From: Thermoplasmatota archaeon
GTDB lineage: Archaea; Thermoplasmatota; E2; DHVEG-1; B18-G2
Length of the DNA: 12,590 nucleotides
Assembly: GCA_029259115.1 (NCBI GenBank)
Contig: JAPDJO010000072.1
Location: 1-12,590 of the forward strand
Reading direction: 5' to 3'
Shown here: piece by piece, positions 1-12,346 of the stretch
Layout: each line of letters starts with the position of its first letter
How positions within the stretch are numbered: position 1 is the stretch's first letter
Notes under the pieces: generated by a model
What the model saw: only the letters and a program-made list of their open reading frames with translations
Told to the model about the DNA's origin: nothing
Databases searched by the model: none
Translations under genes and position numbers: made by a program

Positions 1-354
1 CCTACCGCCTGGACCAGTTCCCTCAACCTTCTCCAAGGATATCTTCAATTCTCTTGCGAGCTTTTTCGCGATGGGACTCGCCTTTATCTTAATCTTAGGC
101 TTAACTCTAGCCGGAGCCTCGGCTTCCTCTATTACGGCTATAGCTTCTCCAACCTTGACAACCTCACCGGATCTCTTCAAGATCTTGACGAGCTTACCCG
201 TGTATGGCGATTCCACCTCGAAGGTGGTCTTTTCACCTTCAACGACCAACACGGTCTCTCCCTTACGTACGTCATCGCCCTCCTTCTTCAACCACTCCAC
301 AATTCTCCCTTCTTCCATCACTGGATCAAGTCTAGGCATCTTGAGCTCCGCCAT
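1..354 (-). CDS. Dihydrolipoamide acyltransferase (E2, AcoC/PdhC-like), N-terminal part only; runs off the left edge
   Basis: Not in the ORF track. Manual translation from ATG 354: MAELKMPRLDPVMEEGRIVEWLKKEGDDVRKGETVLVVEGEKTTFEVESPYTGKLVKILKRSGEVVKVGEAIAVIEEAEAPARVKPKIKIKASPIAKKLARELKISLEKVEGTGPGGR. This is a lipoyl domain (lipoyl-Lys in EGEKT) plus a peripheral subunit-binding domain (ASP.A.KLARE..I.L..V.GTGPGGR). It starts 2 nt after the E1beta stop. Confidence 0.93.
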   Translation of the reverse strand, partial: MAELKMPRLDPVMEEGRIVEWLKKEGDDVRKGETVLVVEGEKTTFEVESPYTGKLVKILKRSGEVVKVGEAIAVIEEAEAPARVKPKIKIKASPIAKKLARELKISLEKVEGTGPGGR

Positions 355-356
355 CT

Positions 357-1343
357 TCACTTCACCAACCTTTTAACGGCGTCAACGATCTTATCAGAAT
401 CAACCATATACTGCTTCTCAAGCTGCGGTGAAAATGGTATCGGTAGCGGCGGAGAGTTCACCCTAATTATCGGAGCATCTAGATAGTCGAAGGCGAACTC
501 GCTGACGTAGGCTGAGACCTCGGCCGATATACCGCATGTCTTAACGCTGTCATCAGCTATGACAAGTCTATTCGTCTTCATAACGGATTTAACTATCGTG
601 TCATAATCCATCGGCTGAATAGTCATCAAGTCTATCACCTCCGCGCTTATCCCCTCTTCTGCGAGCTTATCGGCCGCCTTCAAAGCCTCGATGACGGTTC
701 TAGCCACAGCGACTATCGTAACGTCCTCGCCCTCACGCTTAACATCACATTTACCCAAAGGTATCAAATACTCATCTTCAGGAACAGGCCCCTTCAACCT
801 ATAAAGGACTCCTGATTCTATGAAGAGCACGGGATCATCATCCCTTATAGCGGACTTCAATAAGCCCTTGGCATCCTTCGGGGTTCCAGGTAAGACGACC
901 TTTATCCCAGGTGATTGAAGGAAGCATGCGGCTAGAAATTGACTGTGTTGACATCCATGAGCTCTCCCCAAACTATATTGAGTTCTAATAACCATCGGAA
1001 GCTTCACCTGCCCCCCGCTCATGAACCTCGATTTCGCCGCATGAGTTATGATCATGTCAGTGGCGAGAGTCAAGAAATCTAAATACATTATCTCGGCCAC
1101 GGGTCTAAGCCCCATCAAGGCGGCTCCGATCGCCGTTCCAGCTATGGCCGCTTCTGAAATCGGTGTGTCCAAGACTCTCTCCGGCCCAAATTCCTCTAAT
1201 AATCCCTTAGTCACTTTATAGACTCCTCCGAATACTCCGACATCTTCTCCGAAAACTATCACCTTATCGTCTCTTCTCATCTCTTCTCTCAAAGCCTCAT
1301 TTAAAGCCTCAGCATAACTTATCTCCCTAACGCCACTCGCCAT
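357..1343 (-). CDS. TPP-dependent dehydrogenase E1 beta subunit (AcoB/PdhB family)
   Basis: Motifs EALNEALREEM, GEDVGVFGGVYKVTKGL, RVLDTPISE, GLRPVAEIM, QHSQ, DAKGLLKSAIRDDDPV, YLDAPIIRV. Start moved from 1385 to ATG 1343 (MASGVREISY), which follows a GGGGTG SD-like site and overlaps the E1alpha stop. Confidence 0.95.
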   Translation of the reverse strand: MASGVREISYAEALNEALREEMRRDDKVIVFGEDVGVFGGVYKVTKGLLEEFGPERVLDTPISEAAIAGTAIGAALMGLRPVAEIMYLDFLTLATDMIITHAAKSRFMSGGQVKLPMVIRTQYSLGRAHGCQHSQFLAACFLQSPGIKVVLPGTPKDAKGLLKSAIRDDDPVLFIESGVLYRLKGPVPEDEYLIPLGKCDVKREGEDVTIVAVARTVIEALKAADKLAEEGISAEVIDLMTIQPMDYDTIVKSVMKTNRLVIADDSVKTCGISAEVSAYVSEFAFDYLDAPIIRVNSPPLPIPFSPQLEKQYMVDSDKIVDAVKRLVK

Positions 1344-2379
1344 ATCTCGCACCCCCACTAACATAGAGATAATCCCACATCTCATCGAATGGCATGATCG
1401 GAGCTTCCTCAGCTTCCTTAACGGCTTCCTCTAGAATTGAAGCTATTTCCTCATCCCATCTCTTAAACTCGTCCTCTGAGATTATTCCCAAGCTCTTGAG
1501 CTTCTTGAAGAATCTGTCTATCGGATCCTTCTTCATCCAGAACTCAACTTCATCCTTTGGCCTATACCAAGCAGTATCATAGACTCCGTGTCCCTTCTTT
1601 CTATATGTCCTGCACTCGATGAATGCTGGCCCATTACCGGATCGAATATATTCAGCAGCTTTGCTGGCGGCATAATAGACTGCGACTACATCGTTTCCAT
1701 CCTCAACAAGAAACGACTTTATTCCATAACATGCTCCTCTAGCAGCTATACTCTCACCGGCAAAGGACTTCTTATGTGGAACTGATAATGCATATAGATT
1801 ATTCTCGCATACAAATAGTATTGGGAGCTTCCAAACCGCAGCTAAGTTCACTCCCTCATTGAATGCTCCAGTATTCACCGCTCCATCTCCAAAGAACACG
1901 GCCGCTATCCTGTCTTCCTTCCTATACTTCAAGGCCAACCCCACTCCACATGCTATGGGTATACCGCTTCCAACGATCGCCGTGGCCATCGGAATATTAT
2001 GCTCAACGCTTAGAGCCGAATGCATGCTCCCACTCAATCCCTTACATGTTCCAGTGATCTTCCCGAAAAGCTCAGCCATCAATGCCTTCATTGAGACTCC
2101 TCTGGCGATCGCGTGACCATGTCCCCTATACGTCGTGACTATAACATCATCATCTCTAAGAGCTCCAATAACTCCAGCCGCAACCGCTTCCTCACCGAGA
2201 TAGAGATGCGCTGGACCTATGAGCTTTCCCTCCACCAAAAACAATCTCTCAACCATCTCCTCAAATCTCCTAGCCTCAAGCATCTTCCTCAACATCATTC
2301 TCAAATCTTCTTCCTTCAGCGGGAGATCCTTGTATTGCTCTACTGGAATTTCGCGTACTACTTCGACCATTCCTTTCAT
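1327..2379 (-). CDS. TPP-dependent dehydrogenase E1 alpha subunit (AcoA/PdhA family)
   Basis: HLYLGEEAVAAG, TYRGHGH, GSMH, TPP-binding motif GDGAVNTGAFNEGVNLAAVWKLPILFVCENN, ECRTYR..GH, KDPI. Alternative start ATG 2370. Confidence 0.95.
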   Translation of the reverse strand: MKGMVEVVREIPVEQYKDLPLKEEDLRMMLRKMLEARRFEEMVERLFLVEGKLIGPAHLYLGEEAVAAGVIGALRDDDVIVTTYRGHGHAIARGVSMKALMAELFGKITGTCKGLSGSMHSALSVEHNIPMATAIVGSGIPIACGVGLALKYRKEDRIAAVFFGDGAVNTGAFNEGVNLAAVWKLPILFVCENNLYALSVPHKKSFAGESIAARGACYGIKSFLVEDGNDVVAVYYAASKAAEYIRSGNGPAFIECRTYRKKGHGVYDTAWYRPKDEVEFWMKKDPIDRFFKKLKSLGIISEDEFKRWDEEIASILEEAVKEAEEAPIMPFDEMWDYLYVSGGARYGEWR

Positions 2380-2451
2380 AATTCTAGAAGTTCTGGAGAA
2401 GAATATCTACTTTTACTTGATATGAACACATGTGTGGGTGATGAAGGATTA

Positions 2452-2467
2452 AATGCTTATATAAAGC
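2452..2467. promoter_or_regulatory. Archaeal TATA box in the divergent E1alpha/ATPase intergenic region, possibly bidirectional
   Basis: aatgcTTATATAAagc. TTATATAA (2457-2464) is palindromic and lies about 28 nt upstream of ATG 2493; the minus strand reads TTTATATA. Confidence 0.6.
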
Positions 2468-2492
2468 CAGGCGGCTTATCGTAATCGAGGTT

Positions 2493-3596
2493 ATGGTATC
2501 GGTTAAAGTCGTAAATACTTCGAAGAAATTTGATGGCAAGAAAATATTGGATGATGTAACCTTCGAGGTCAAGGATGGAAGCTTTACATCGATTCTCGGG
2601 CCAGTCGGCGCAGGAAAGACAACGTTGCTTAGAATCATTGCCGGCGTTGAGTCCCCTGACAGCGGATCAGTCTACTTTGGAGGCAAGGATGTGACCATGA
2701 TGCCGGCTAGAGAGAGAAACGTAGCAATGGTGTACCAAACCTTCGCGCTTTATCCGCATATGAGAGTCTTCGACAATATCGCTTCGCCATTAGCCATAAG
2801 AGGAGTCCCAAAGGTGGAGATCGAGAAGAGGGTTAAGGAGGTAGCAGATTTACTGAAAATTAGTCATCTATTATCGAGATATCCTAGAGAGCTTAGCGGC
2901 GGTGAAGCTCAGAGGGTGGCTATTGCCAGAGCTCTGATAAAGAGAGCCGATGTCTACCTCTTTGACGAGCCTCTAACCAATCTTGATTATAAGATCAGGG
3001 AGAGCATGAGAGGAGAGCTCAGAAGAATTTTTAGAGAGCTTGGAGGCACGATAATCTACGCTGCATCCGACCCATTAGACACGTTCACAATGGCTCAATA
3101 TGTAGTGATCTTGCATAAGGGAAGGGTGTTGCAAACAGGGACTGTGGAAGACGTTTACCTTAATCCCAAGAACATGGATGTGAGTAGGATTCTCGCAAGA
3201 CCTCCCATGAACCTTATTGATGCTGAATTAAAGATCAGTGGAGACAGGTATATCCTAGATGTGAGGGGAATTGAGATCGATGTAAGCCACTTAAAGGATC
3301 TGTTAAAGGAGGAGGAATATGTTGTCGGCGTTAGACCTGAGCATCTCGTCTTCTCAACCGGAGACGAGAAAGATGTGATCAGCTTCCCGAGCACAGTTAT
3401 CGTGACGGAGATAGAAGGTTCAGAATCAATAATTCACCTGGATTGGAAGGGGTACAAGCTGATGATGTACTATCCGTATATTAGGAGGCTGGCTCCAGGA
3501 GAGCATCTTGTCGTGAACGTAAAACTTAAGGACCTCTACATATTTAGCAAGAAAAGTGGAGAATTGATAGCTAGATACTCAAGGGAGGTTGTCTGA
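2493..3596 (+). CDS. glpS: Carbohydrate (CUT1) ABC transporter ATP-binding protein, GlpS-like, with degenerate H-loop
   Basis: Walker A GPVGAGKT, Q-loop AMVYQ, signature LSGGE, Walker B/D-loop YLFDEPLTNLDYKIRE, H-switch replaced by YAASDP, C-terminal GVRPEH/TOBE region. NIASPL and NLDYK.RE match GlpS as I recall the family. GAGGT SD upstream. The symbol is family-level only. Confidence 0.9.
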   Translation: MVSVKVVNTSKKFDGKKILDDVTFEVKDGSFTSILGPVGAGKTTLLRIIAGVESPDSGSVYFGGKDVTMMPARERNVAMVYQTFALYPHMRVFDNIASPLAIRGVPKVEIEKRVKEVADLLKISHLLSRYPRELSGGEAQRVAIARALIKRADVYLFDEPLTNLDYKIRESMRGELRRIFRELGGTIIYAASDPLDTFTMAQYVVILHKGRVLQTGTVEDVYLNPKNMDVSRILARPPMNLIDAELKISGDRYILDVRGIEIDVSHLKDLLKEEEYVVGVRPEHLVFSTGDEKDVISFPSTVIVTEIEGSESIIHLDWKGYKLMMYYPYIRRLAPGEHLVVNVKLKDLYIFSKKSGELIARYSREVV

Positions 3597-3599
3597 GGA

Positions 3600-4673
3600 A
3601 TGGTCTCTATTAGATTAGAGAACATAACCCACATATATCCAGGAGAGGTTGTAGCCGTAAGAGATGTAAGTATAGCTTTCCAAGACAAGACCTTTAACGG
3701 CTTACTCGGTCCCTCTGGATGTGGAAAGACCACCCTAATGAAGATCATCGCAGGGCTACTGAAACCAACAAAAGGTAGGGTCTACTTCGACGATCAAGAC
3801 GTGACCGACATGTCGCCGCAGAAGAGAAACATCGCCATGGTTTTCCAGTTTCCAGTAGTCTACGATATGTCAGTATATGGCAATATAGCTTTCCCACTAC
3901 GAGTCAGGAAAATACCCGAAGATGAGATCAGGAGGAAGGTACATGAGGTGGCGGAGATGTTAGGTATAAAGCATCTATTACATGTTCATGCTGCAGCTCT
4001 CGATGCTAGTGGAAGACAGAGAGTTGCTATCAGCAGAGCATTGGTGAGAAGCCCTAATGCCTTTATTCTTGACGAACCCTTTAGTAACATAGATCCAGAG
4101 AGCAGGCTGGTCCTAAGAGCCAAGCTTAAGGAAATTCAGAGGGAGCTTAAGCAAACAATGATTTTCGTGACCCATGATCAAGCAGAAGCACTAACCCTAT
4201 CAGATAAAATAGCAGTGATGAGTGAAGGTAAGATTATTCAATACGATAGTCCGGAGGTAATCTATGAAAATCCGGCGAACACGTTCATAGCATACTTTGT
4301 AGGGATTCCGGCTATGAACTTGATTCCAGCCAGCCTACAGGGTTCTTTCCTAGTGGCGGGAGATTTAAGATACGATGTATCAAGATATAAACATTTATTG
4401 GAGCCTAGAGGTACAGAGTTTATTTTAGGAATCAGAGCTGAGAATATAGAGGTTAGCTTATCAGAAAAAGTAGACAAGGAGTGGCTAAAGATGAAATGCT
4501 CAATGATCGAGAGTTTAGGCGCTCTATTAATATTGCATTTAGAAGGAGCAGGAATTTACGTTAAAGCCAAGGTTCGGAGGATTCCTGTATCCGAAGGAGA
4601 TTCTGTCTGGATTAGATTGAAGCCGGAAAAGGTGAAGATCTTCGACAAGAAAAGTAGAGAGAGAATAATTTAG
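3600..4673 (+). CDS. Carbohydrate (CUT1) ABC transporter ATP-binding protein, ABC-type GlpT-like (not the MFS GlpT), with degenerate signature
   Basis: Walker A GPSGCGKT, AMVFQFPVVYD (typical of the GlpT-like ATPase), signature replaced by LDASG, FILDEPFSNIDP, intact VTHDQAEA. GGAGG SD upstream. Confidence 0.9.
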   Translation: MVSIRLENITHIYPGEVVAVRDVSIAFQDKTFNGLLGPSGCGKTTLMKIIAGLLKPTKGRVYFDDQDVTDMSPQKRNIAMVFQFPVVYDMSVYGNIAFPLRVRKIPEDEIRRKVHEVAEMLGIKHLLHVHAAALDASGRQRVAISRALVRSPNAFILDEPFSNIDPESRLVLRAKLKEIQRELKQTMIFVTHDQAEALTLSDKIAVMSEGKIIQYDSPEVIYENPANTFIAYFVGIPAMNLIPASLQGSFLVAGDLRYDVSRYKHLLEPRGTEFILGIRAENIEVSLSEKVDKEWLKMKCSMIESLGALLILHLEGAGIYVKAKVRRIPVSEGDSVWIRLKPEKVKIFDKKSRERII

Positions 4674-4695
4674 TCCCTGCAGGCTTCTAAGTCTT

Positions 4696-4875
4696 TTATG
4701 CAAATTTATAGAACAGCCACCCTATTATTCCTCCGATAATTAATGCCCCCCACAGTGACAATCTATAGATGGGTTCTATGGTCTTTAACCAGATGAAGCA
4801 TACAGCGAAAGTCAAGACTATTCCCACGAAAACTTTCTCACCTTTCGTTAACTTCACCGGCAGGAACCCCATCAT
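4696..4875 (-). CDS. glpU: Small two-helix membrane protein, GlpU/DUF2160-like accessory subunit (59 aa)
   Basis: Not in the ORF track. MMGFLPVKLTKGEKVFVGIVLTFAVCFIWLKTIEPIYRLSLWGALIIGGIIGWLFYKFA*. ATGATG overlaps the permease TGA (translational coupling). GFLP....G..(V/L)F.G........WL resembles the C-terminal part of DUF2160, and it follows the GlpQ-like permease as glpU does. Confidence 0.82.
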   Translation of the reverse strand: MMGFLPVKLTKGEKVFVGIVLTFAVCFIWLKTIEPIYRLSLWGALIIGGIIGWLFYKFA

Positions 4876-5690
4876 CTCACCGCCCCGAATGTTAGCGCCG
4901 TAGCGATGTGTTTCTGCAAGAAGTATATAACTATTATGACTGGTAGGTTGGCGATCACGGAGAGAGCGGCTATTTCGCTCCAGTTAACCCATATCTGAGA
5001 CATGTAGTGTAGTAAGCCGCCTGTCAATGGCATAGCTGCTGGTGAGGTTGTCAGTAGGGAGGCGAAGAGCATCTCGTTCCAGGTGAATATGAAGACGAAG
5101 AGAGAGCATACCGCTATAGCTGGCCTTAATATGGGTAAGAGAATCTTCCTCAACATTTGCCAGAAAGTGTATCCATCTATGTATGCCGCTTCTTCAATAT
5201 CTCCTGGAATCGCATCTATGAAGCCTTTAAGTACCCATATTACGAACGGCAAATTTCCTATGCTGTTGATGATTATTAATCCGTAGATGGTGTCGAAAAG
5301 TTTGAGGTAGGTGTAAAGAACCCAATAGGGTATTAGGAAGGCTGCTGGCGGAGCCATCCTATTTGTTAGGAACCAGAAGAGGAAGTGATTGTCAGCTTTG
5401 AACTTTAATCGTGAGAAGGCGTATGCGGCGAGAATACCTGGTGGAAGACAAAGAGCTATCTCCGCTATCGAAAGGATGAAAGAATTTCTTAGATATGCCC
5501 CATAAACATCCTCAAAAAGAGGTCTGTAATAGTTCATCCAGTTTAATTGATGAGGTATGAAGACTACTCCTCCAATTACCTCCAGCCTTGTCTTGAAGGA
5601 GGTAACTATCAGCCAGTATAATGGGAAGAGGATGAATATCAGCGTCAAGCCCACAAGGATTATAGACGCAGTTTTCTCCCAGTTGACCAT
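4872..5690 (-). CDS. glpQ: Carbohydrate ABC transporter permease (MalG-type, GlpQ-like)
   Basis: FPLYWLIVTSFK, FWFLTNRMAPPA (GlpQ-like), EAA loop IEEAAYIDG, FIFTWNE. GAGGTGA SD upstream. The symbol is family-level only. Confidence 0.92.
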   Translation of the reverse strand: MVNWEKTASIILVGLTLIFILFPLYWLIVTSFKTRLEVIGGVVFIPHQLNWMNYYRPLFEDVYGAYLRNSFILSIAEIALCLPPGILAAYAFSRLKFKADNHFLFWFLTNRMAPPAAFLIPYWVLYTYLKLFDTIYGLIIINSIGNLPFVIWVLKGFIDAIPGDIEEAAYIDGYTFWQMLRKILLPILRPAIAVCSLFVFIFTWNEMLFASLLTTSPAAMPLTGGLLHYMSQIWVNWSEIAALSVIANLPVIIVIYFLQKHIATALTFGAVR

Positions 5691-5699
5691 TTTTCCTGC

Positions 5700-6554
5700 T
5701 CACCTCTTTGTGACAACCTTTAAAGTTATAAAGGTTAGTATGATGACAATGTATAGGAAGAAGAGCGCGACCGCAGCGCAATATCCCATTTTCAATTCAC
5801 TTAAAGCCGTTTTAACGATATAGATGCTTAGATAGTTTGTAGCTTTTCCAGGACCTTCAGCCGTTAGAACCCATACTTCATCGAATATCCTGAGAGCATC
5901 CATCATTCTTATCAGGAATGCGATCATTATGCCGTACTTCATTCCTGGAAGCGTAATGTATCTGAAGATGTCCCAAGAGGAAGCGCCATCAACCATAGCT
6001 GAATCATAGGGTTCGGGCGGAATAGAGGCTCTTGCAGCAACTAAAACCAAAACCACGAAGGGTGTCCAGTGCCATACATCCATTAAAACCGTGGTGAAGA
6101 AGGCTTGAAGTGGAGAAGCTCCAATATCATAATTGAAGTTGAAAATTTGTTTCAGAACAAGTGGTATTGGTCCGATATCTGGTCTGACCATTAATAGCCA
6201 AATCGATCCAACAACTAAGGGCGGAATGAGCATGGGGGTAGCGAGGATCGTGCGGGTTATTCTGTTTATGCGGGTATCTTTGTAAAGTGCTAATGCGAGC
6301 GCCAACCCTAATGGAATTTCAATAACCATGCATATGGCCACGAAAGCAAACCCCTTAGCTAGGGAATCCCAGAAGATAGTGTCGAACATTAAGTGAAAGA
6401 AGTTGTCATAACCTATGAAGAGAGGGGGAACGCCTAACGTATACCTTTGGGTAGCTAGATAAGCGGCGTAAAATACTGGTAAGAAGGCATTGAATCCAAC
6501 AATTATGAAGGCAGGCAAAAAGAGTAACCATGGATTAATGGTTTGTCGGGTCAT
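5700..6554 (-). CDS. glpP: Carbohydrate ABC transporter permease (MalF-type, GlpP-like)
   Basis: IEIPLGLALAL, PMLIPPLVVG, MDVWHWTP, EAA-like YDSAMVDGAS, LIRMMDALRIFDE, GPG. Start set at ATG 6554 because the GTG at 6566 lies within an AGGTGA SD. Confidence 0.92.
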   Translation of the reverse strand: MTRQTINPWLLFLPAFIIVGFNAFLPVFYAAYLATQRYTLGVPPLFIGYDNFFHLMFDTIFWDSLAKGFAFVAICMVIEIPLGLALALALYKDTRINRITRTILATPMLIPPLVVGSIWLLMVRPDIGPIPLVLKQIFNFNYDIGASPLQAFFTTVLMDVWHWTPFVVLVLVAARASIPPEPYDSAMVDGASSWDIFRYITLPGMKYGIMIAFLIRMMDALRIFDEVWVLTAEGPGKATNYLSIYIVKTALSELKMGYCAAVALFFLYIVIILTFITLKVVTKR

Positions 6555-6582
6555 TTTCCACTTCACCTAATTTTGGACGCTT

Positions 6583-6607
6583 AAAAAAAGTATAAGGAGT
6601 ATAAAAA
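6583..6607 (-). terminator. Oligo-T tracts downstream of the SBP gene (putative partial archaeal terminator)
   Basis: The minus strand reads TTTTTatactccttatacTTTTTTT between the SBP stop (6641) and the first permease. Confidence 0.5.
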
Positions 6608-6640
6608 TTTAACCAGAGAGTTTTGAGTAGTTGAGCTATT

Positions 6641-8260
6641 TCACCACTTAACCGGATAGCCCAGTTCTTTGAGTTTCGCGTCTATCTCCTTTGCCAGCTC
6701 CTTGGCACACTCTTCAGGCGTCAGTTCTCCTGAGACCGCCTTAGCTAGCACCGTGTAAAAGACGTACAGTAGTGGCGCGTAATCTCCGATCTCTAGCGGT
6801 GTTCCTATGAAATACCTCCGAGCAATCATGTCCCTAATTTGGGTGAATATTCCTCCGAACTTGGCGTTCAATGGATCTAGCTCCGGGCTCATCAACACGG
6901 ATGTCCTTACCGTTGTGTTAATGGATTTCGCTCTATCTAGCTCATTCAGCGGCGAGATTACGAACTGGGACCATAGGAATCCCAGCTCCGGATCTGGTGA
7001 ACACCATGGAATACAGTATCCGCTGATGTCGGCGTATCCAATAGGCTTAAACGGCGTCCAATACTCTCTGTCAACTGGCGGGATAGCGACCTTGAACTTT
7101 CCAGCGATCTTAGAGACCTCTGGGTTAGCGAAGGTCGATAGGAACTGCGTGTAGGTAACTGTCTGAGTCACTTTTCCAGCAGCCACCTGTTCAGCACACT
7201 CTACATAAATCCAGCCCTTAATTCCTGGTGGAGCAAACTTCAAGAGCTTTAGGAACCAGTCGATGGCTTTAACAGCAGCTGGACTATCTAAGGCGCCGCC
7301 ATGCTCTGTCCTCGCACTCCAAGTCTCGGTATTGATTCCCCATCCCGGCAGTAGCTTTCTGTTATATGGGCTCAACCCCTCACCTCCAACTCCACAAGAC
7401 GTGAGCCACGTCTCGAAGAAGTCGAAGCCCAAAGCCTCATGCGCCTTAGCTCCACAGGCATTGATCCATCCATATAGGTCTGGCGGCCTCGTAAAGAACT
7501 CAGCAGTGTCATAGACTTGGTCCCAATATCTCGGCGGCTCTAAGTCGTATCCATATTTGCTCTTAAAGGCTTTCTTCTCATCCGGGTCCTCGAAGAGGTC
7601 AGATCTATAAACATATGTTTTAGGATAATACTCTGCTGGAATCGTTAGGATGTGTCCCCTTGGATCGACGCAATACTCTAGGCAGAATATATCATCTGGG
7701 TTGAATCCGGGCTCTACTAATTCAGGCCTCTCTTCCATTATTTTTGTTATATCGGTAACCCACCCCTTCCTGATCCATGTGCCGACCATGTCTTGATCAT
7801 CATATGTCACCGTGTAGATTCCGGTGCCCTTCTCCATATCCATTATTTCTTTCTCCATGACTAGCTCGTTAGAGGTTAATTCCCAGTCGATCTTAATTCC
7901 AGTCAGCTCCTCCCACTTCGGCCCGACAACATCCCTTAGGTAGTAGTTTGGCTCCCATGCCTGAGCTAGAATCTTTATTCTCTTACCCCTCCAAGGCTCG
8001 GTAACCTTCCTCCACCACTCCCGAAGCTTCTCAGCCATGGCTGGAGTTGGTGGGACGGTTGTAACGGTCTTAGTGACAGTTGTAGCTGCCCCTGGAGCAG
8101 TAACAGTAGTTGATTTCGTTACGGTGCTGGTAATGATCTTCTCCAAAACTTTCGAAGGCTTTGAATACCATCCAGCAGCCGCGCCAACAGCGATACCGAC
8201 TATTGCAGCAGCTATAGTCTGAATCCATGCCCTCCTACTAACTTTTCCCCCTTCAGACAT
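6641..8260 (-). CDS. glpV: ABC transporter solute-binding protein, GlpV-like family 1 SBP with twin-arginine-like N-terminal anchor and Thr-rich linker
   Basis: Start at ATG 8260 (MSEGGKVSRRAWIQTIAAAIVGIAVGAAAGW), 24 nt below a TATA box. Linker TSTVTKSTTVTAPGAATTVTKTVTTVPPTP. Family motifs EELTGIKI, YRSDLF...FKSKYGYDL.PP..W....D.AEFFT, GG.LDSPAAV.A, APPG. The symbol is family-level only. Confidence 0.9.
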   Translation of the reverse strand: MSEGGKVSRRAWIQTIAAAIVGIAVGAAAGWYSKPSKVLEKIITSTVTKSTTVTAPGAATTVTKTVTTVPPTPAMAEKLREWWRKVTEPWRGKRIKILAQAWEPNYYLRDVVGPKWEELTGIKIDWELTSNELVMEKEIMDMEKGTGIYTVTYDDQDMVGTWIRKGWVTDITKIMEERPELVEPGFNPDDIFCLEYCVDPRGHILTIPAEYYPKTYVYRSDLFEDPDEKKAFKSKYGYDLEPPRYWDQVYDTAEFFTRPPDLYGWINACGAKAHEALGFDFFETWLTSCGVGGEGLSPYNRKLLPGWGINTETWSARTEHGGALDSPAAVKAIDWFLKLLKFAPPGIKGWIYVECAEQVAAGKVTQTVTYTQFLSTFANPEVSKIAGKFKVAIPPVDREYWTPFKPIGYADISGYCIPWCSPDPELGFLWSQFVISPLNELDRAKSINTTVRTSVLMSPELDPLNAKFGGIFTQIRDMIARRYFIGTPLEIGDYAPLLYVFYTVLAKAVSGELTPEECAKELAKEIDAKLKELGYPVKW

Positions 8261-8284
8261 ACATTTGTGTATAAGCAATTCAGT

Positions 8285-8300
8285 TATTTAAAGTTTTTAT
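8285..8300 (-). promoter_or_regulatory. BRE-TATA promoter of the SBP-permease operon (likely leaderless)
   Basis: Minus strand ataaaaacTTTAAATA; the TATA box (8285-8292) ends 24 nt before ATG 8260. Confidence 0.65.
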
Positions 8301-8319
8301 AGGGAAATACTATTTTTGC

Positions 8320-8334
8320 GACAAGCTTTATATT
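8320..8334 (+). promoter_or_regulatory. BRE-TATA promoter of the kinase gene (likely leaderless)
   Basis: gacaagcTTTATATT; the TATA box (8327-8334) ends 25 nt before ATG 8360, and no SD is present. Confidence 0.65.
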
Positions 8335-8359
8335 AGACTGTTACGCGACTACCTATGCT

Positions 8360-9922
8360 ATGGATTATCCGTTATTTTTAGGCACGGATATAGGAACCTT
8401 TGGAACTAAAACTATCTTAGTGGATGCTTCTGGAAAAATTCTCGCCGAATCCTTCGTCGAAACGGATGTCATAATTCCAAAGCCCGGATGGGCTGAGCAA
8501 TGGCCAGAAGTATGGCTGAACGCATATGTTAAAAGTGTAAAGGAGGTGTTGAAAAAATCCGGGGCTAATCCAAAGGATATCAAAGGTATATCGGTTAGTG
8601 GGCTCTATACGGGTTCAGGGATCCCAGTTGATAAGGATTTCAAGCCTTTGAGACCGGCGATCATATGGATGGATAGAAGAGCTGTCCAAGAAACGGAGTG
8701 GATTAAAAACGAAATTGGAGAGGAAGAGATCTTCAGGAAAACTGGAAACATAATAGATCCATTCTTTGGAATAACGAAGATCTTATGGATTAAGAGGAAT
8801 GAGCCTAAGATCTGGGATAAAATACATCAGCTAGTGACATGCTACGGATTCGTAACTCATTACCTTACAGGAGTCAACTGTATCGACCACTCAAGCGCCG
8901 GTGTTATCGGCGGGATATACGATATCCATAAGAGACAATGGTCTGATGAATTTATGCGGGAGCTGGGTGTTCCAAGAGAATTCTTTCCAGAGAGGATAAA
9001 TTGGTCAAAGGACATCGTAGGAGAAGTCAGAGCAGAGTGCGCTGAAAGGATAGGGCTGGCAAAAGGGACTCCCGTGGTAGCGGGTGGAATTGACGCACCA
9101 ATGTCATCTTTAAGCGTCACAGCGCTAAACGATGGGGATTTAGCCTCCATGATAGGGACGTCGATGTGCAACGGCTTCATTCAAGATGAGCCCAGGCTCT
9201 CAAGGAGGCTCGTAAACCTGCCTCATGTAGCATATGATGACAAGAAGTTGTACTGCTTCGCTGGTATAATAACTGCTGGAGCAGTCGTTAGGTGGTTTAG
9301 AGATAATATTGCTCTTCAGGAGAAGAGCGTTGGAGAAAGAGCTGGAATCTCAGCATACGTCTTATTAGATAAGATGGCTGAAAAGATCCCGCCGGGAGCC
9401 GATGGAGTGATCTTCACGCCGCACATGACAGTAGGTGAGAGAGCTCCATATTGGAATCCATATCTTAGAAGCTGCGTCTTCGGATTAACGCTCTATCACA
9501 CGCAAGCGCATCTCTTTAGAGCTTTCCTTGAAGGAGTCGCCTTCGCGATTAAGGATAGCATCGAAGTTGCTAGAGAAGCTGGGATTCCATTAAAGAGGGC
9601 AATCTTAGTGGATGGTGGGGCAAAGTCTCCTTTATGGAGGCAGATAATCGCAGATGTCACCGGAGTAGAGTTCACCTATATCAAAGGAGCTCCAGGAGCG
9701 CCTTTAGGAGATGCTTTAATAGCAGGAGTGGGGACAGGATATTTGAAATATGAGACGATTTTCGACTGGGTGAAGGCCGCTCAGAAAGTCGAGCCGATTA
9801 AAGAGAACATGGAGAGGTATAATGCGCTATACGAGGTGTATGTTAAGGTCAGAGATGGTCTCCAAGAATGTTATAGACTGCTGGCCGAGAAGATGAAAAC
9901 TCAAGGTGATGTAACTAAGTGA
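8360..9922 (+). CDS. FGGY-family carbohydrate kinase, xylulokinase-like (substrate uncertain)
   Basis: LGTDIGTFGTKT, PGWAEQWP, PLRPAIIWMDRRA, KILWIKRNEP, PVVAGGID, MIGTS, GERAPYW...RSCVFGLT, RAFLEGVAF, DGGAKSPLWRQIIADVTG. It lacks GlpK hallmarks such as TNQRET and WQDRRT. Confidence 0.92.
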   Translation: MDYPLFLGTDIGTFGTKTILVDASGKILAESFVETDVIIPKPGWAEQWPEVWLNAYVKSVKEVLKKSGANPKDIKGISVSGLYTGSGIPVDKDFKPLRPAIIWMDRRAVQETEWIKNEIGEEEIFRKTGNIIDPFFGITKILWIKRNEPKIWDKIHQLVTCYGFVTHYLTGVNCIDHSSAGVIGGIYDIHKRQWSDEFMRELGVPREFFPERINWSKDIVGEVRAECAERIGLAKGTPVVAGGIDAPMSSLSVTALNDGDLASMIGTSMCNGFIQDEPRLSRRLVNLPHVAYDDKKLYCFAGIITAGAVVRWFRDNIALQEKSVGERAGISAYVLLDKMAEKIPPGADGVIFTPHMTVGERAPYWNPYLRSCVFGLTLYHTQAHLFRAFLEGVAFAIKDSIEVAREAGIPLKRAILVDGGAKSPLWRQIIADVTGVEFTYIKGAPGAPLGDALIAGVGTGYLKYETIFDWVKAAQKVEPIKENMERYNALYEVYVKVRDGLQECYRLLAEKMKTQGDVTK

Positions 9923-9997
9923 CGGTGATTATCAATGAGCTTACTCTCAGCTGAATGCATCTAAATCCACCTTTTTCAGCGTCATCTCCATGACTTT

Positions 9998-10386
9998 TTA
10001 CATTAACTCATGGCTAGCACTTCCGAAGGAGGTGTTAACTCCATCTGTAGCCAAGATCCCGATCAAAACCTTTCCCTCACCATCCTCATATAAAATATCT
10101 AAGGTCTCCATCCAAGGGGATGATGGAAGATGAGGCATTCCTTAGAAGAACTTGATCATAAACTCCGCCTTCGAAGAGATGAAACGGCTCTAGGAGTACG
10201 TTGCTATTCTCCAGCCAATTAATTTCAACATGATCTTCATAGAATGTCTGAGGGCCAGACTACTTGAACCGGCTGAAATCTACTGTCGACGTATAGACAT
10301 GTAACCTCGCTTGTAAATCCGATGCTTAAGATAAGAAGCGTTGCTATAAGACCAGCTACGATGATCAAAAGTAGTTGGTCTATCCA
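9998..10386 (-). pseudogene. Probable degraded fragments of a secreted/surface protein gene
   Basis: Consecutive segments in different frames: a signal-peptide-like WIDQLLLIIVAGLIATLLILSIGF, then FYEDHVEINWLENSNVLLEPFHLFEGGVYDQVLLRNASSSII, then METLDILYEDGEGKVLIGILATDGVNTSFG. They are broken by stops and frameshifts, and the first segment has no start codon. Confidence 0.35.
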
Positions 10387-10596
10387 ACCTGACCTATGAT
10401 GGTTTTGTTAAAAATATAAGTCTTAATGCATCCTCTACAAGTTGTAGCCATATGGAGAAAATGGAAACATTGTCTAAAGATTTGGCGTAAAGGAGATTCT
10501 GAGCCTTTAGCCATGAGGTTCTCGTTAAGGTTCTTGGACGGTGGAGAAGAGGGGGGTTGCAGGTGATTGTAAAGTTCACGGCGGATCTATCTAAAT

Positions 10597-11295
10597 TTAT
10601 TTCTTCTTTAATGCCATCTCTGCAGTCCTCCTTAATTCCTCTACAGCCTTCCTATAATCACTCGACCTGAAGATGAACTTTCCAACCACTAAGACATTTG
10701 CTCCGCTTTCAACGAACTTCGAAGCCGTTAGAGTATTAACTCCGCCGTCGATAGCAATATCTACTTTTCCTCCACAGATTTTTCTAAGTTTTTTCAGCCT
10801 CCTATAAGCTTCCTCGAACCTAATCCTTCCCCCAAAATTGGCGTTGACCGCCACTAACACGACCTCGTCGACTTGATCCTTTCTCCTCTCCACATGGGTT
10901 AGGTCGCTTGAGACCGTTACTCCAAGCCCCACCTCAACTCCTTCTGAAACTAGGTAATCTATGATGGCATCCGGCTCTTCAAGGATCTCTGGATGAATGA
11001 TGATCCTATCTGCTCCTAATTTCACGCACTTCTTCACAAATTCCAAGTCTGTATCTATGGATAAGTGTAGGTCTATCGGGATCTTTGTCCTCCGTTTAAC
11101 GAAGTCGAGTAGAAGTAGACCTATATTCAATGCCGTTAATTCACTATATAGGTAGGCTCCTAGAATAAAGGGATAAACATCTACATGCAGCATATCCGCA
11201 CCACTTTCATTTATCATCTCCAATTCTTCATCCAACTTATCAAACCGAGCTGTAATGATTGATGGCACTATCTTTATCCTCATCTTGCCATCCAT
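10597..11295 (-). CDS. rpe: Ribulose-phosphate 3-epimerase family protein (divergent)
   Basis: IVPSI, GADMLHVDV, PIDLHL, GAD.I.IHPE, VN..FGG, IAIDGGVN, GANVLVVG..IF. The His/Asp/His/Asp metal ligands are retained. Start could be 11301, 11295 or 11283; 11295 fits the TATA spacing best. Confidence 0.88.
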   Translation of the reverse strand: MDGKMRIKIVPSIITARFDKLDEELEMINESGADMLHVDVYPFILGAYLYSELTALNIGLLLLDFVKRRTKIPIDLHLSIDTDLEFVKKCVKLGADRIIIHPEILEEPDAIIDYLVSEGVEVGLGVTVSSDLTHVERRKDQVDEVVLVAVNANFGGRIRFEEAYRRLKKLRKICGGKVDIAIDGGVNTLTASKFVESGANVLVVGKFIFRSSDYRKAVEELRRTAEMALKKK

Positions 11296-11316
11296 TAGCA
11301 TCGTTATAGTCGTGGT

Positions 11317-11744: not shown

Positions 11745-12305
11745 TCAATCATGTTCGTGTCGCAGCTTTTTTACTTCATTTAAGATAAGTTCAGCCGTCC
11801 ATCTAGCGGCATTGGCTACTACTGAAGGGCACCCTTTCGGAGTATGAGCGCCAGCTCTCTCAAACTCCTTATGCTGCTTAGGATCCCAGAGATCATACCA
11901 TTTTCCTAAGATCTTTGTTTGAATGTCTTTGCAAAGGGTGCTGCCGTATTCTTGAATGAATCTTTCACAAAGTTCCTTAGCCAGCCTAAAGGCGACATAT
12001 CTTTTTCTGGTCGGATCTCCTGATATGTAGTCAGAGTAACTCCTGCCAAAGAAGAGGCCGATGGCCATCGTCCCTCCGCATAAGGCGCCGCAAGTCAATC
12101 CCTTAAAGCCTATTCCAGCGGCAAAGCCTGTAGCTATCTTCACGTAGTCTCGAGGTAGATCGAAGCCTTCAAGCAACGCTAGGAAAGTGGCTTCACAACA
12201 TCCATGGTATACTTCTTCATAATGTGCAGCTTTCTTAACGATTTCTTCGATTAATTCTTGAGCTTCCTCATCGCTTAACTTCGTAAGCTTCTTCCTCGCG
12301 TCCAT
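11745..12305 (-). CDS. C-GCAxxG-C-C family putative redox-active protein
   Basis: YHGCCEAT, GFAAGIG..GLTCGALCGG, YGSTLCKDIQ, GCPSVV give the four-Cys pattern of this family. Start set at ATG 12305 because GTG 12317 lies within a GAGGTG SD. Confidence 0.9.
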   Translation of the reverse strand: MDARKKLTKLSDEEAQELIEEIVKKAAHYEEVYHGCCEATFLALLEGFDLPRDYVKIATGFAAGIGFKGLTCGALCGGTMAIGLFFGRSYSDYISGDPTRKRYVAFRLAKELCERFIQEYGSTLCKDIQTKILGKWYDLWDPKQHKEFERAGAHTPKGCPSVVANAARWTAELILNEVKKLRHEHD

Positions 12306-12346
12306 AAACTTCCACACCTCTTTGACGCTTAAATCCTAGCACTTGA

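Follow-up and report, generated by a model that had tools for sequence, protein, structure and literature searches.

The 12,590-nucleotide stretch analysed here (the window) is the whole of contig JAPDJO010000072.1, one of the 94 contigs (C24; 1.40 Mb in total, 5.48% estimated contamination) of a bin deposited as a Thermoplasmatota archaeon under GenBank assembly GCA_029259115.1. It carries the genes of an E1/E2 complex of the acetoin dehydrogenase (Aco) or pyruvate dehydrogenase (PDH) type next to those of an ABC (ATP-binding cassette) importer, an FGGY kinase and a divergent epimerase of the Rpe family, a combination proposed from the sequence to be an undescribed archaeal sugar or polyol pathway in which the complex cleaves a ketose phosphate. 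Our analysis, which partly supports this interpretation, shows that a conserved core of E1, E2 and alcohol dehydrogenase (ADH) genes, together with a cupin and an aldolase in some members, adjoins a swappable importer-kinase cassette in an archaeal island.

Genes of the window and of the DNA that continues it

Gene calls were taken from a six-frame listing of open reading frames (ORFs) searched with Pfam and NCBIfam profiles (11 ORFs scanned), and every gene family named in the original prediction was present where it had been placed. Two relatives of the locus recur throughout: G041, a Nitrososphaerota metagenome-assembled genome ('Thaumarchaeota archaeon isolate AUK008', ~45% guanine plus cytosine (GC)) whose E1alpha locus is L013, and L134, an independent 15.7-kb metagenome contig. 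The complex occupies the left end of the window, on the reverse strand. Its E1alpha gene, encoding a thiamine pyrophosphate (TPP)-binding subunit of the Aco/PDH type (1327-2379, -), matches E1_dh (PF00676) at 268.5 bits and the model of PDH E1alpha type y, TIGR03182, at 343.6 bits, below the cut-off of 393.85. The E1beta gene (357-1385, -; Transket_pyr (PF02779), 143 bits; Transketolase_C (PF02780), 136.4 bits) exceeds the cut-off of 321 of the PDH E1beta model NF006667 with 389.8 bits and is 97% identical to its counterpart in G041; its ORF reaches 59 nt into the end of E1alpha, so that the start codon cannot be placed with certainty. The E2 gene (1-360, -) is truncated by the contig end to the N-terminal 120 amino acids, which comprise the lipoyl domain and the start of the E3-binding domain (Biotin_lipoyl, 67 bits; E3_binding, 45.2 bits).

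A divergent intergenic region (2380-2492) with TATA-like boxes on both sides, whose length of 113 nt had been given exactly, separates E1alpha from the importer. The latter begins with two ABC ATPase genes, the first of the MalK/UgpC type (2493-3596, +; ABC_tran, 118.9 bits; OB_MalK, 32.4 bits; UgpC-type NF008653, 321 bits, below cut-off) and the second its paralogue (3600-4673, +; ABC_tran, 95.3 bits; OB_MalK, 31.3 bits; TOBE_2, 20.7 bits); the two are ~35% identical to each other, and the pair is retained in L134, L137, L142, L162 and the genome G066. On the opposite strand lie the genes of a DUF2160-like small membrane protein of 59 residues and two helices (4696-4875, -; PF09928, 25.2 bits, E 2.1e-5, cut-off 28), a MalG/GlcU-like permease (4872-5690, -; BPD_transp_1, 62.5 bits), a UgpA/GlcT-like permease (5700-6566, -; BPD_transp_1, 58.1 bits) and a long substrate-binding protein (SBP) of 539 residues (6641-8260, -; SBP_bac_1, 48.2 bits). 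With two ATPases, two permeases and one binding protein, the importer is Glp-type in make-up, as had been proposed. The 59-residue ORF, a sixth transporter gene absent from the original list, overlaps the permease stop codon (an arrangement of translational coupling) and probably encodes a sixth importer subunit; a DUF2160 gene occupies the matching position in a cluster on plasmid p42e of Rhizobium etli. The SBP matched no NCBIfam model and, by sequence at E <=0.01, no PDB entry. Among plasmids 770 records were matched, and the SBP of R. etli p42e is 31.9% identical over 84% of the length. Its neighbourhood (SBP, two permeases, DUF2160, Zn-ADH, one UgpC-type ATPase, two short-chain dehydrogenases/reductases (SDRs) and an AraC regulator) is a polyol-type context.

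A second divergent intergenic region (8261-8359) lies between the SBP and the kinase, and its TATA-like blocks are kept in L134 and G041. The 99 nt originally reported for it presuppose that translation of the SBP begins at the in-frame ATG of 8260, the likely start, with which the alignment of the G041 orthologue from residue 6 agrees; the ORF runs to 8278, and the upstream TTG would leave 81 nt. The TATA-like blocks of 2380-2492 are likewise conserved on comparison with L134. A common operator in both regions was considered and rejected, the perfect 10-nt palindrome of 2380-2492 not being conserved in L134, and since the TATA-like blocks alone are shared they give no evidence of a common regulator.

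The FGGY kinase (8360-9922, +; FGGY_N, 204.2 bits; FGGY_C, 102.2 bits) is XylB-like. It scores 346 bits against XylB (TIGR01312, cut-off 380.25), 192.4 against GlpK (TIGR01311, cut-off 590) and 196.7 against LsrK (NF008187, cut-off 528), and among solved structures the E. coli xylulokinase comes closest to it (2itm, 190.9 bits). The Rpe-family gene (10597-11301, -; PF00834, 119.4 bits) encodes a divergent paralogue, and its description as atypical is borne out by a score of 139.6 bits against TIGR01163, whose cut-off is 212.6 and with which the canonical Rpe of G041, encoded separately, scores 299.9 bits. Residues H42, D44, H75 and D184 (in the numbering of the canonical G041 Rpe) are invariant in all seven of the seven Rpe-family sequences aligned; these H-x-D, H and Asp (DGG) positions we take to be the metal and catalytic residues. 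The canonical MDGHFVPN stretch of the paralogue is replaced by a longer loop with a 7-residue insertion and its Met-containing motifs are altered, both traits being common to the copies of G041, G066 and G053.

Between kinase and epimerase lies the pseudogene remnant (9923-10596, -), left by an internal deletion, of a gene for a 613-residue HExxH membrane protein. Its short ORFs (10237-10368 and 9998-10138) match the N- and C-termini of G041:C30:8798-10639; the gene is whole in both G041 and L134 (82% identity in L134), and the 613-residue protein matched no Pfam family. The last gene of the window encodes a C_GCAxxG_C_C family protein (11745-12317, -; PF09719, 90.1 bits; TIGR01909, 63.3 bits, above the cut-off of 47.4), to which a 48-residue match (62.5% identity) exists on G041:C7, ~3 kb from another E1/E2 complex, described below.

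As the window is an entire contig, its left edge is an assembly break, and G041:C5 supplies the continuation. The full E2 orthologue there has 373 residues and a catalytic 2-oxoacid_dh domain (PF00198, 233.9 bits), and the start of a Zn-dependent ADH gene (ADH1) overlaps its stop codon. On the opposite strand follow a second Zn-ADH (ADH2), a class II aldolase and a small cupin, and then housekeeping genes. The aldolase is nearest to L-fuculose-phosphate aldolases (4c24, 129.4 bits) and falls below every NCBIfam cut-off, while the best solved relative of the cupin is the uncharacterised Mn cupin TM1459 (58.8 bits). Identifying the cupin with the methylsulfurylase of the methylthioadenosine-isoprenoid shunt, which would make 1-deoxyxylulose 5-phosphate, was rejected, the match to Rru_A2000 (3jzv) reaching only 21.8 bits. 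No E3 gene is present in the core operon, window and G041:C5 taken together; a single E3 (Pyr_redox_dim) gene was found in G041, on C4, where it is flanked by those of LipA (lipoyl synthase) and LplA (lipoate ligase). G041:C7 carries a second, distinct 2-oxoacid dehydrogenase (OADH) complex with a fused E1, an E2 and LplA, and G041:C1 groups the canonical Rpe, a split transketolase and a transaldolase. Among the 11 ORFs scanned, the window has no aldolase, transketolase, GlpK or GlpD, in agreement with the original account; for aldolase and transketolase this is true of the window only, because G041 has both outside it.

The contig is out of line with the bin that contains it. Its GC content is 0.448, compared with 0.376-0.412 in the 23 larger contigs of the bin, and a profile search of the bin's contigs gave no PF00198 match elsewhere, so that the rest of E2 was not found there. 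No E1alpha orthologue was found in the 40 relatives of the bin that were searched, 30 of which gave weak matches (24-30% identity, best E 3.1e-8). The window and G041 contigs C5 and C30 are 88-95% identical at the DNA level, and the G041 stretches fetched have a GC content of 0.44-0.48; when the bin without C24 was compared with these stretches, a single weak 472-bp match resulted. Given the deviating GC content, the lack of an orthologue in the bin's relatives and the close match to G041, C24 is probably mis-binned and does not belong to the bin's organism; its owner is most likely a G041-like organism, a recent transfer into the bin's organism being conceivable as an alternative. The cluster is archaeal in origin: G041:C30 (L102, 1-5384) carries an archaeal 23S rRNA gene, 5008 bases long against a model of 2987 positions and interrupted by ORFs with LAGLIDADG domains (intron homing endonucleases), and the start of that contig, a few kb from the epimerase gene, encodes an archaeal RNase P RNA.

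Misplacement of C24, together with the fact that the G041 assembly breaks precisely at the two paralogous ATPase genes, could be taken to point to an artefact, either a chimeric assembly or a mis-binned contig without further biological meaning. L134, whose proteins are 76-94% identical to those of the window, nevertheless shows the same unbroken order from E2 to a NAD-epimerase gene past the window's right end. As this full order stands on a single contig, the juxtaposition of complex and cassette is real and a chimeric assembly is rejected. Contigs of the DNA run X1 moreover tile most of the window at >=90% identity, and two further metagenome loci, L142 and L144, show a second arrangement of the same families, which leaves an artefact very improbable.

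A conserved core beside a separable cassette

Core and cassette come apart in several ways. Contigs of three runs (two DNA libraries and one RNA library, from two studies) join window position 2467, within the divergent region between E1alpha and the first ATPase gene, to position 10607, skipping 8139 bases and placing 28 other letters between, with flanks of 76, 56 and 28 letters. The joint represents a natural haplotype that lacks importer and kinase and brings E1alpha directly up to the Rpe paralogue. In the genome G043, whose E1alpha is 91% identical, cupin, aldolase, ADH2, ADH1, E2, E1beta and E1alpha follow one another and the NAD-epimerase gene lies 270 bp on, the interval between E1alpha and the latter containing no importer, kinase, Rpe paralogue or C_GCAxxG gene. 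In the metagenome locus L139, the outer flanks of the G041 island enclose an aldolase-kinase pair only. These three forms mark the region beside E1alpha as a hotspot of gene-content change whose units are separable: the cassette is strain-variable and the core can stand alone. Both units also occur in G066, where the cassette (both ATPases, the permeases, SBP, Rpe paralogue and kinase) is found on C5/C12 with unrelated flanks, and E2, E1beta, E1alpha, ADH1, ADH2 and the cupin are on C41, apart from it.

Surveys from both sides of the junction qualify the linkage that the original prediction expected to be conserved. Among the best 80 loci of at least 589 confirmed E1alpha relatives, taken with one genome per species, the window's SBP and Rpe paralogue were matched in none of the 79 other loci (L013, that is G041, aside), and weak FGGY matches (22-30%) appeared in four of them. 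A close SBP was present in two of the 61 genomes around G041, namely G041 itself (94%) and G066 (70-76%). The 65 metagenome loci with relatives of the kinase include E1alpha in three cases (L134, L142 and L144), the SBP or importer in nine, an Rpe-family match in 11 and a class II aldolase directly upstream in two (L136 and L139); L137 and L138 carry cassette genes, and no E1 lies within the 10 kb fetched on the kinase side. The exact linkage of E1alpha with this SBP and Rpe clade is therefore rare, and what does recur is the presence of the complex among sugar genes. In L142 and L144 (kinase 67-68% and E1alpha 55-59% identical) the units are adjacent in another order, E1beta and E1alpha diverging from an Rpe-kinase pair that is followed by the permeases, the SBP and the two ATPases.

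The core on its own has a wider range. ADH1 and ADH2 homologues (42-52%) stand beside E1/E2 in 11 Bathyarchaeia loci of the best 80, and a cupin does so in three. According to a genome survey, Bathyarchaeia homologues have already been annotated as acoABCL (PMC11619403). A search with the E1alpha protein returned generic names only among the best 120 of 5932 matches (for example 'TPP-dependent pyruvate/acetoin dehydrogenase alpha subunit').

Contigs of the metatranscriptomes X19 and X20 cover the E1 genes, both ATPases, a permease, the SBP, the kinase, the Rpe-like gene and the C_GCAxxG gene. Since contigs give no levels and carry-over of DNA is possible, they say nothing firm on co-induction, and window parts that they leave uncovered were not counted as evidence.

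The fetched loci held some further features. In L144 a 104-residue duplicate of the E1alpha N-terminus (1759-2073) lies just upstream of the full E1alpha gene. Seven loci with more distant kinase relatives (56-58%; L151-L155, L164 and L179) have a short lipoyl-domain ORF 0.2-2.8 kb upstream of the kinase, which in L153, as annotated for that one locus of the seven, is accompanied by a lipoate ligase and a radical-SAM gene. In L140 two uroporphyrinogen decarboxylase (URO-D) genes (7463-9946) adjoin a kinase relative (64%).

Candidate reactions of the complex

We tentatively favour a reading in which a thermophilic Nitrososphaerota archaeon close to G041 has a mosaic island of ~20 kb for polyol/sugar catabolism, of which the window forms one end, and the complex acts as an enzyme of the acetoin dehydrogenase type. 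The substrates and reactions of the island are all our inference, set beside the gene content, separability and recurrent neighbourhood that were observed. The importer would take up a small polyol or ketose; a polyol would be oxidised to a ketose by a Zn-ADH, the kinase would phosphorylate the ketose, and the Rpe paralogue would adjust its configuration at C3. The product might then enter the non-oxidative pentose phosphate route (for which G041 encodes the canonical Rpe, split transketolase and transaldolase elsewhere) or be split by the FucA-like aldolase. The Zn-ADHs coupled to the complex may make an alpha-hydroxyketone from a vicinal diol (2,3-butanediol to acetoin, or a similar short ketol), which the complex would turn into an acyl-CoA and an aldehyde. 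Because G041 has the FucA-like aldolase, canonical Rpe, transketolase and transaldolase, no unusual cleavage enzyme is needed to close the pathway. The Aco-type assignment draws on the lack of an own E3, the coupling of E2 to an ADH gene, the ADH pair in Bathyarchaeia and the 48% identity of the window's E1alpha to that of Fontibacillus, which is encoded in a classical E1alpha-E1beta-E2-E3-sigma54-AcoR-like cluster. Thus the aco-like character originally claimed for the complex stands as far as the Zn-ADHs after E2 and the missing E3 are concerned; its E1alpha, on the other hand, lies outside the canonical aco clade.

This last point is one of several that weigh against an acetoin dehydrogenase. 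Two quick maximum-likelihood trees of 85 and 58 rows, with SH-aLRT (approximate likelihood-ratio) support only, placed the window's E1alpha within an archaeal clade (support of 100 and of 98, the latter for a clade of 20 rows) that is separate from the Bacillota clade of E3/AcoR context (97 and 99). It is also apart from the alphaproteobacterial PDH-like (99), Bathyarchaeia and Atribacterota clades, and in both trees it shares a half with the alphaproteobacterial PDH-like clade, the canonical aco clade falling into the opposite half. The proposed tree check therefore sets E1alpha outside both the canonical-aco and the PDH-like clades, these being clades defined by context in trees that hold no experimentally characterised AcoA or other reference, with context labels set after the loci had been viewed. 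The two ADHs, too, are closer to threonine and sorbitol dehydrogenases (160-167 bits) than to (R,R)-butanediol dehydrogenase: against the solved enzyme of the latter kind (6ie0) they score 96.4 and 119.8 bits, compared with 160-167 bits for threonine dehydrogenases. In L142 and L144 the neighbourhood has been rearranged and the adjacency of complex and cassette retained, which argues for more than chance.

The neighbours of the complex in close relatives, seen in 12 further E1alpha loci fetched and annotated from genomes around G041, are likewise atypical of acetoin catabolism. The richest is that of G053 (70% identity; L213, which is G053:C15 1171-19264), where a same-strand array starts with a DRL-like (DXR-like) oxidoreductase, E1alpha, E1beta, E2 and ADH1 and continues with a XylB-type kinase that passes the model cut-off (404 bits), a 2-hydroxyacid dehydrogenase, an aldehyde dehydrogenase, a cupin and a class II aldolase; adjoining it are a Zn-ADH, a second FGGY kinase, an Rpe paralogue (44%), an SDR, another Zn-ADH and a DeoC-type aldolase. 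In G045 (65%) the core stands beside ADH2, a 2-hydroxyacid dehydrogenase, a XylB-type kinase (394.5 bits), an ADH and a xylose-isomerase-like TIM barrel, and in G061, G055 and G051 (58-67%) a phosphofructokinase (PFK) gene lies beside E2, joined in G055 and G051 by RpiB. Upstream in G101 and G091 (62%) lies the gene of a class IV aminotransferase, suggestive of a 2-oxoacid as substrate, and downstream are those of an aldehyde dehydrogenase and a thiolase. The neighbourhoods of G078 and G089 were uninformative. The 58-row tree unites the window in an 11-row group with G055, G051, G053, G049, G045, G061, G042, G043, L134 and L013, and a sugar kinase, PFK/RpiB or class II aldolase is near 10 of these 11 rows, a count that includes related and so not independent genomes; the remaining row, G049, comes from a contig of 3.9 kb. 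As side observations, the 2-hydroxyacid dehydrogenase of G053 is glyoxylate-reductase-like, and on G089:C17 a DRL-like gene is paired with an FGGY kinase and the importer.

More distant homologues of the complex also lie among sugar genes. In two Atribacterota loci (L030, 6864-20940; L033, 5813-20945), with L058 as a partial third, a long same-strand operon of polyol type encodes a SorC-type regulator, PfkB, a mannitol dehydrogenase family protein, a Zn-ADH, a fused E1alpha-beta that is 50% identical to the window's E1alpha, a major facilitator superfamily transporter, an FGGY kinase, a TIM barrel, another FGGY kinase, a Zn-ADH, an SDR and an unassigned gene. L033 has one extra TIM-barrel gene directly after E1, its order being otherwise that of L030; E2 follows eight genes after E1 in L030, and the L033 locus ends before that point. 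These operons contain three kinds of polyol dehydrogenase as well as xylose-isomerase-like TIM barrels. In other bacteria we found the orders PfkB-E2-E1alpha-E1beta (L038) and PfkB-E1 (L074 and L064), DeoR, a mannitol dehydrogenase family gene and an ADH ahead of E1 and E2 (L057), and a RuBisCO-like protein beside E1 (L054, 6205-13235; L053, 3266-6482), with an FGGY kinase too in L054; genes of the URO-D/B12-type methyltransferase kind also stand beside E1alpha in L053 and L054. In all, E1/E2 homologues lie inside sugar or polyol operons in at least four archaeal sublineages and several bacterial phyla, where automatic annotation calls them PDH or acetoin dehydrogenase. The co-location with sugar genes on which the original prediction was built is thus upheld in G053, G045, L142/L144, Atribacterota and other bacteria, and loses force beside the dispensability of the cassette in the sequencing runs and G043.

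Two rivals to an acetoin dehydrogenase deserve to be weighed on this evidence. In the one first put forward, the complex would oxidatively cleave the phosphorylated (deoxy)ketose made by the kinase and the Rpe paralogue, as a lipoate-dependent counterpart of phosphoketolase, for example a 1-deoxy-pentulose 5-phosphate to acetyl-CoA and glyceraldehyde 3-phosphate (GAP) or a pentulose 5-phosphate to glycolyl-CoA and GAP. The occurrence of E1/E2 homologues in sugar operons of distant lineages (Atribacterota, L038, L074, L064, L057, L054 and L053), the XylB-type kinase co-linear in G053 and adjacent in G045, the adjacency that survives reordering in L142 and L144, the sugar genes near 10 of the 11 rows of the window's subclade and the position of E1alpha outside the clades of canonical-aco and PDH-like context all speak for it. 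However, the partners vary by lineage (FGGY, PfkB, PFK and different epimerases), which fits a general downstream enzyme better; the core occurs without the kinase, together with ADHs and cupin in 11 Bathyarchaeia loci and G066 and with the aldolase in G042 and G043; the cassette is dispensable beside the same complex; and the pentose phosphate pathway genes and FucA-like aldolase offer a conventional sink. The context labels are moreover post hoc and the related genomes not independent. We regard this cleavage as rather unlikely.

The other rival, a doubtful one in our estimation, is an ordinary 2-oxoacid dehydrogenase acting on pyruvate, or perhaps on branched-chain substrates as in Thermoplasma, that would convert the end product of sugar breakdown to acetyl-CoA and NADH while the Zn-ADHs and aldolase serve the sugar branch. 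PDH E1alpha type y and PDH E1beta are the best NCBIfam models for the two E1 subunits, the latter over its cut-off, and the archaeal clade shares its half of the tree with the alphaproteobacterial PDH-like clade. Of the solved relatives, human PDH E1alpha (187.4 bits) and a Thermus 2-oxoacid dehydrogenase (186.5 bits) tie, which is compatible with this reading, and typing E1alpha by PDB similarity was given up as uninformative. A variety of sugar partners (PFK, RpiB, XylB and PfkB) is expected of a common downstream step, the aldehyde and 2-hydroxyacid dehydrogenases of G053 could together convert an aldehyde released by the aldolase to a 2-oxoacid, the aminotransferase upstream in G101 and G091 would suit such a substrate, and the T. 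acidophilum complex uses branched-chain 2-oxoacids, according to a table in PMC8305020. On the other side, E1alpha is under the curated PDH cut-off, though TIGR03182 does not separate the contexts and was discarded as a PDH/Aco discriminator (443.1 bits for L084, 420.6 for L033 in its Atribacterota polyol operon, 414.1 for L021 and 370 for L048 in a canonical aco context). The operon has no E3, E2 is translationally coupled to a Zn-ADH, which is an aco-like trait, and the role of 2-oxoacid enzyme could fall to the second OADH complex, that of G041:C7. For the Aco-like E1 pairs of Haloferax volcanii, in addition, a table in PMC8305020 reports tests that excluded pyruvate and 2-oxoglutarate.

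The comparative pattern reaches beyond the window and gives a candidate set for a reaction new to sugar catabolism or for a dedicated link from polyols to acetyl-CoA. In its broadest form, which we think improbable, the E3-less Aco/PDH-like E1/E2 clade would perform a lipoate-dependent oxidative C-C cleavage of sugar-derived ketols, either (deoxy)ketose phosphates or free ketoses from polyol dehydrogenases, to an acyl-CoA (acetyl- or glycolyl-CoA) and a shorter aldose or aldose phosphate. The literature searched, whose coverage leaves out most subscription journals, yielded no account of an Aco/PDH-like complex taking part in the catabolism of polyols or sugar phosphates. If the reading is true, polyol and pentulose catabolism in Nitrososphaerota/Thermoproteota, Atribacterota and several other bacterial phyla would have an exit not described so far, and the window would be one instance of it, in which a Glp-type importer, a XylB-like kinase and a special Rpe paralogue supply the complex. 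If, instead, the complex handles only acetoin or pyruvate, the locus would be an ordinary catabolic island with a presence/absence polymorphism. The proteins are small, thermophilic and easily expressed, which makes direct testing feasible.

Comparison with known systems

The parallel drawn originally to the Lsr/AI-2 (autoinducer-2) system holds at the level of gene-family logic, an ABC importer, an FGGY kinase and a CoA-dependent cleavage being common to both. It does not extend to the proteins: the kinase stays far below the LsrK cut-off, no gene of the LsrF type (DeoC/LacD) and no LsrG gene was found among the window's 11 ORFs scanned, and the importer parts match maltose/Ugp-type ABC models (only the window's side was scored). 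Closer is the glycerol importer GlpSTPQV, which according to PMC11223650 consists of the ATPases encoded by glpS and glpT, the permeases encoded by glpP and glpQ and the binding protein encoded by glpV. The window has the same complement of two ATPase genes, two permease genes and a binding protein, with GlpV compared by make-up only, and differs in lacking GlpK, GlpD and GlpR and in having a XylB-like partner kinase. Putative rhizobial polyol importers resemble it in the SBP, that of R. etli p42e being the best match, and in a candidate DUF2160-like small membrane protein, which in the window scores just below the model's cut-off; the R. etli cluster, unlike the window, encodes a single ATPase.

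XylB is both the best solved relative and the best NCBIfam model of the kinase. The window's enzyme nevertheless falls below the model's cut-off, which the cluster kinases of G053 and G045 pass, and its clade is linked to the Rpe family (11 of 65 loci), class II aldolases (2 of 65) and this importer (9 of 65). The complex shares its Pfam families with PDH E1alpha type y and the T. acidophilum complex, and the PDH-type NCBIfam models score best; it departs from the former in its score below the cut-off and in the lack of an E3 gene in the operon, and from the PDH-like alphaproteobacterial sequences in the separate clade of its E1alpha.

Among archaeal enzymes the nearest counterparts by description, the only level at which they were likened, are the E1alpha/E1beta pairs of Haloferax volcanii encoded by oadhAB2 and oadhAB3, which in a table of PMC8305020 are most similar (40-54%) to bacterial AcoAB, with pyruvate and 2-oxoglutarate excluded as substrates. 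The island thereby bears on the role of archaeal Aco-like complexes in general, the substrate of the Haloferax pairs being presented as an open issue in the same source.

The system to which the favoured reading assigns the complex is AcoABC(L) of Pelobacter carbinolicus and Bacillus subtilis, whose substrate is acetoin as stated in a table of PMC8305020. Like it, the archaeal complex has a heteromeric TPP-dependent E1alpha/E1beta and a lipoylated E2 with a catalytic domain (the full E2 being seen in G041), an ADH gene follows right after E2 in G041, and the E1alpha is 48% identical to the Fontibacillus protein from an E3/sigma-54/AcoR-like cluster. The aco clusters of B. subtilis and P. carbinolicus have an E3 gene of their own (acoL), whereas the core operon is without acoL. 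It differs further in an E1alpha outside the clade of canonical aco context, in ADHs that resemble threonine and sorbitol dehydrogenases more closely than the butanediol dehydrogenase of solved structure, and in the neighbours of the complex, which are sugar kinases, an aldolase and a polyol importer instead of acetoin genes.

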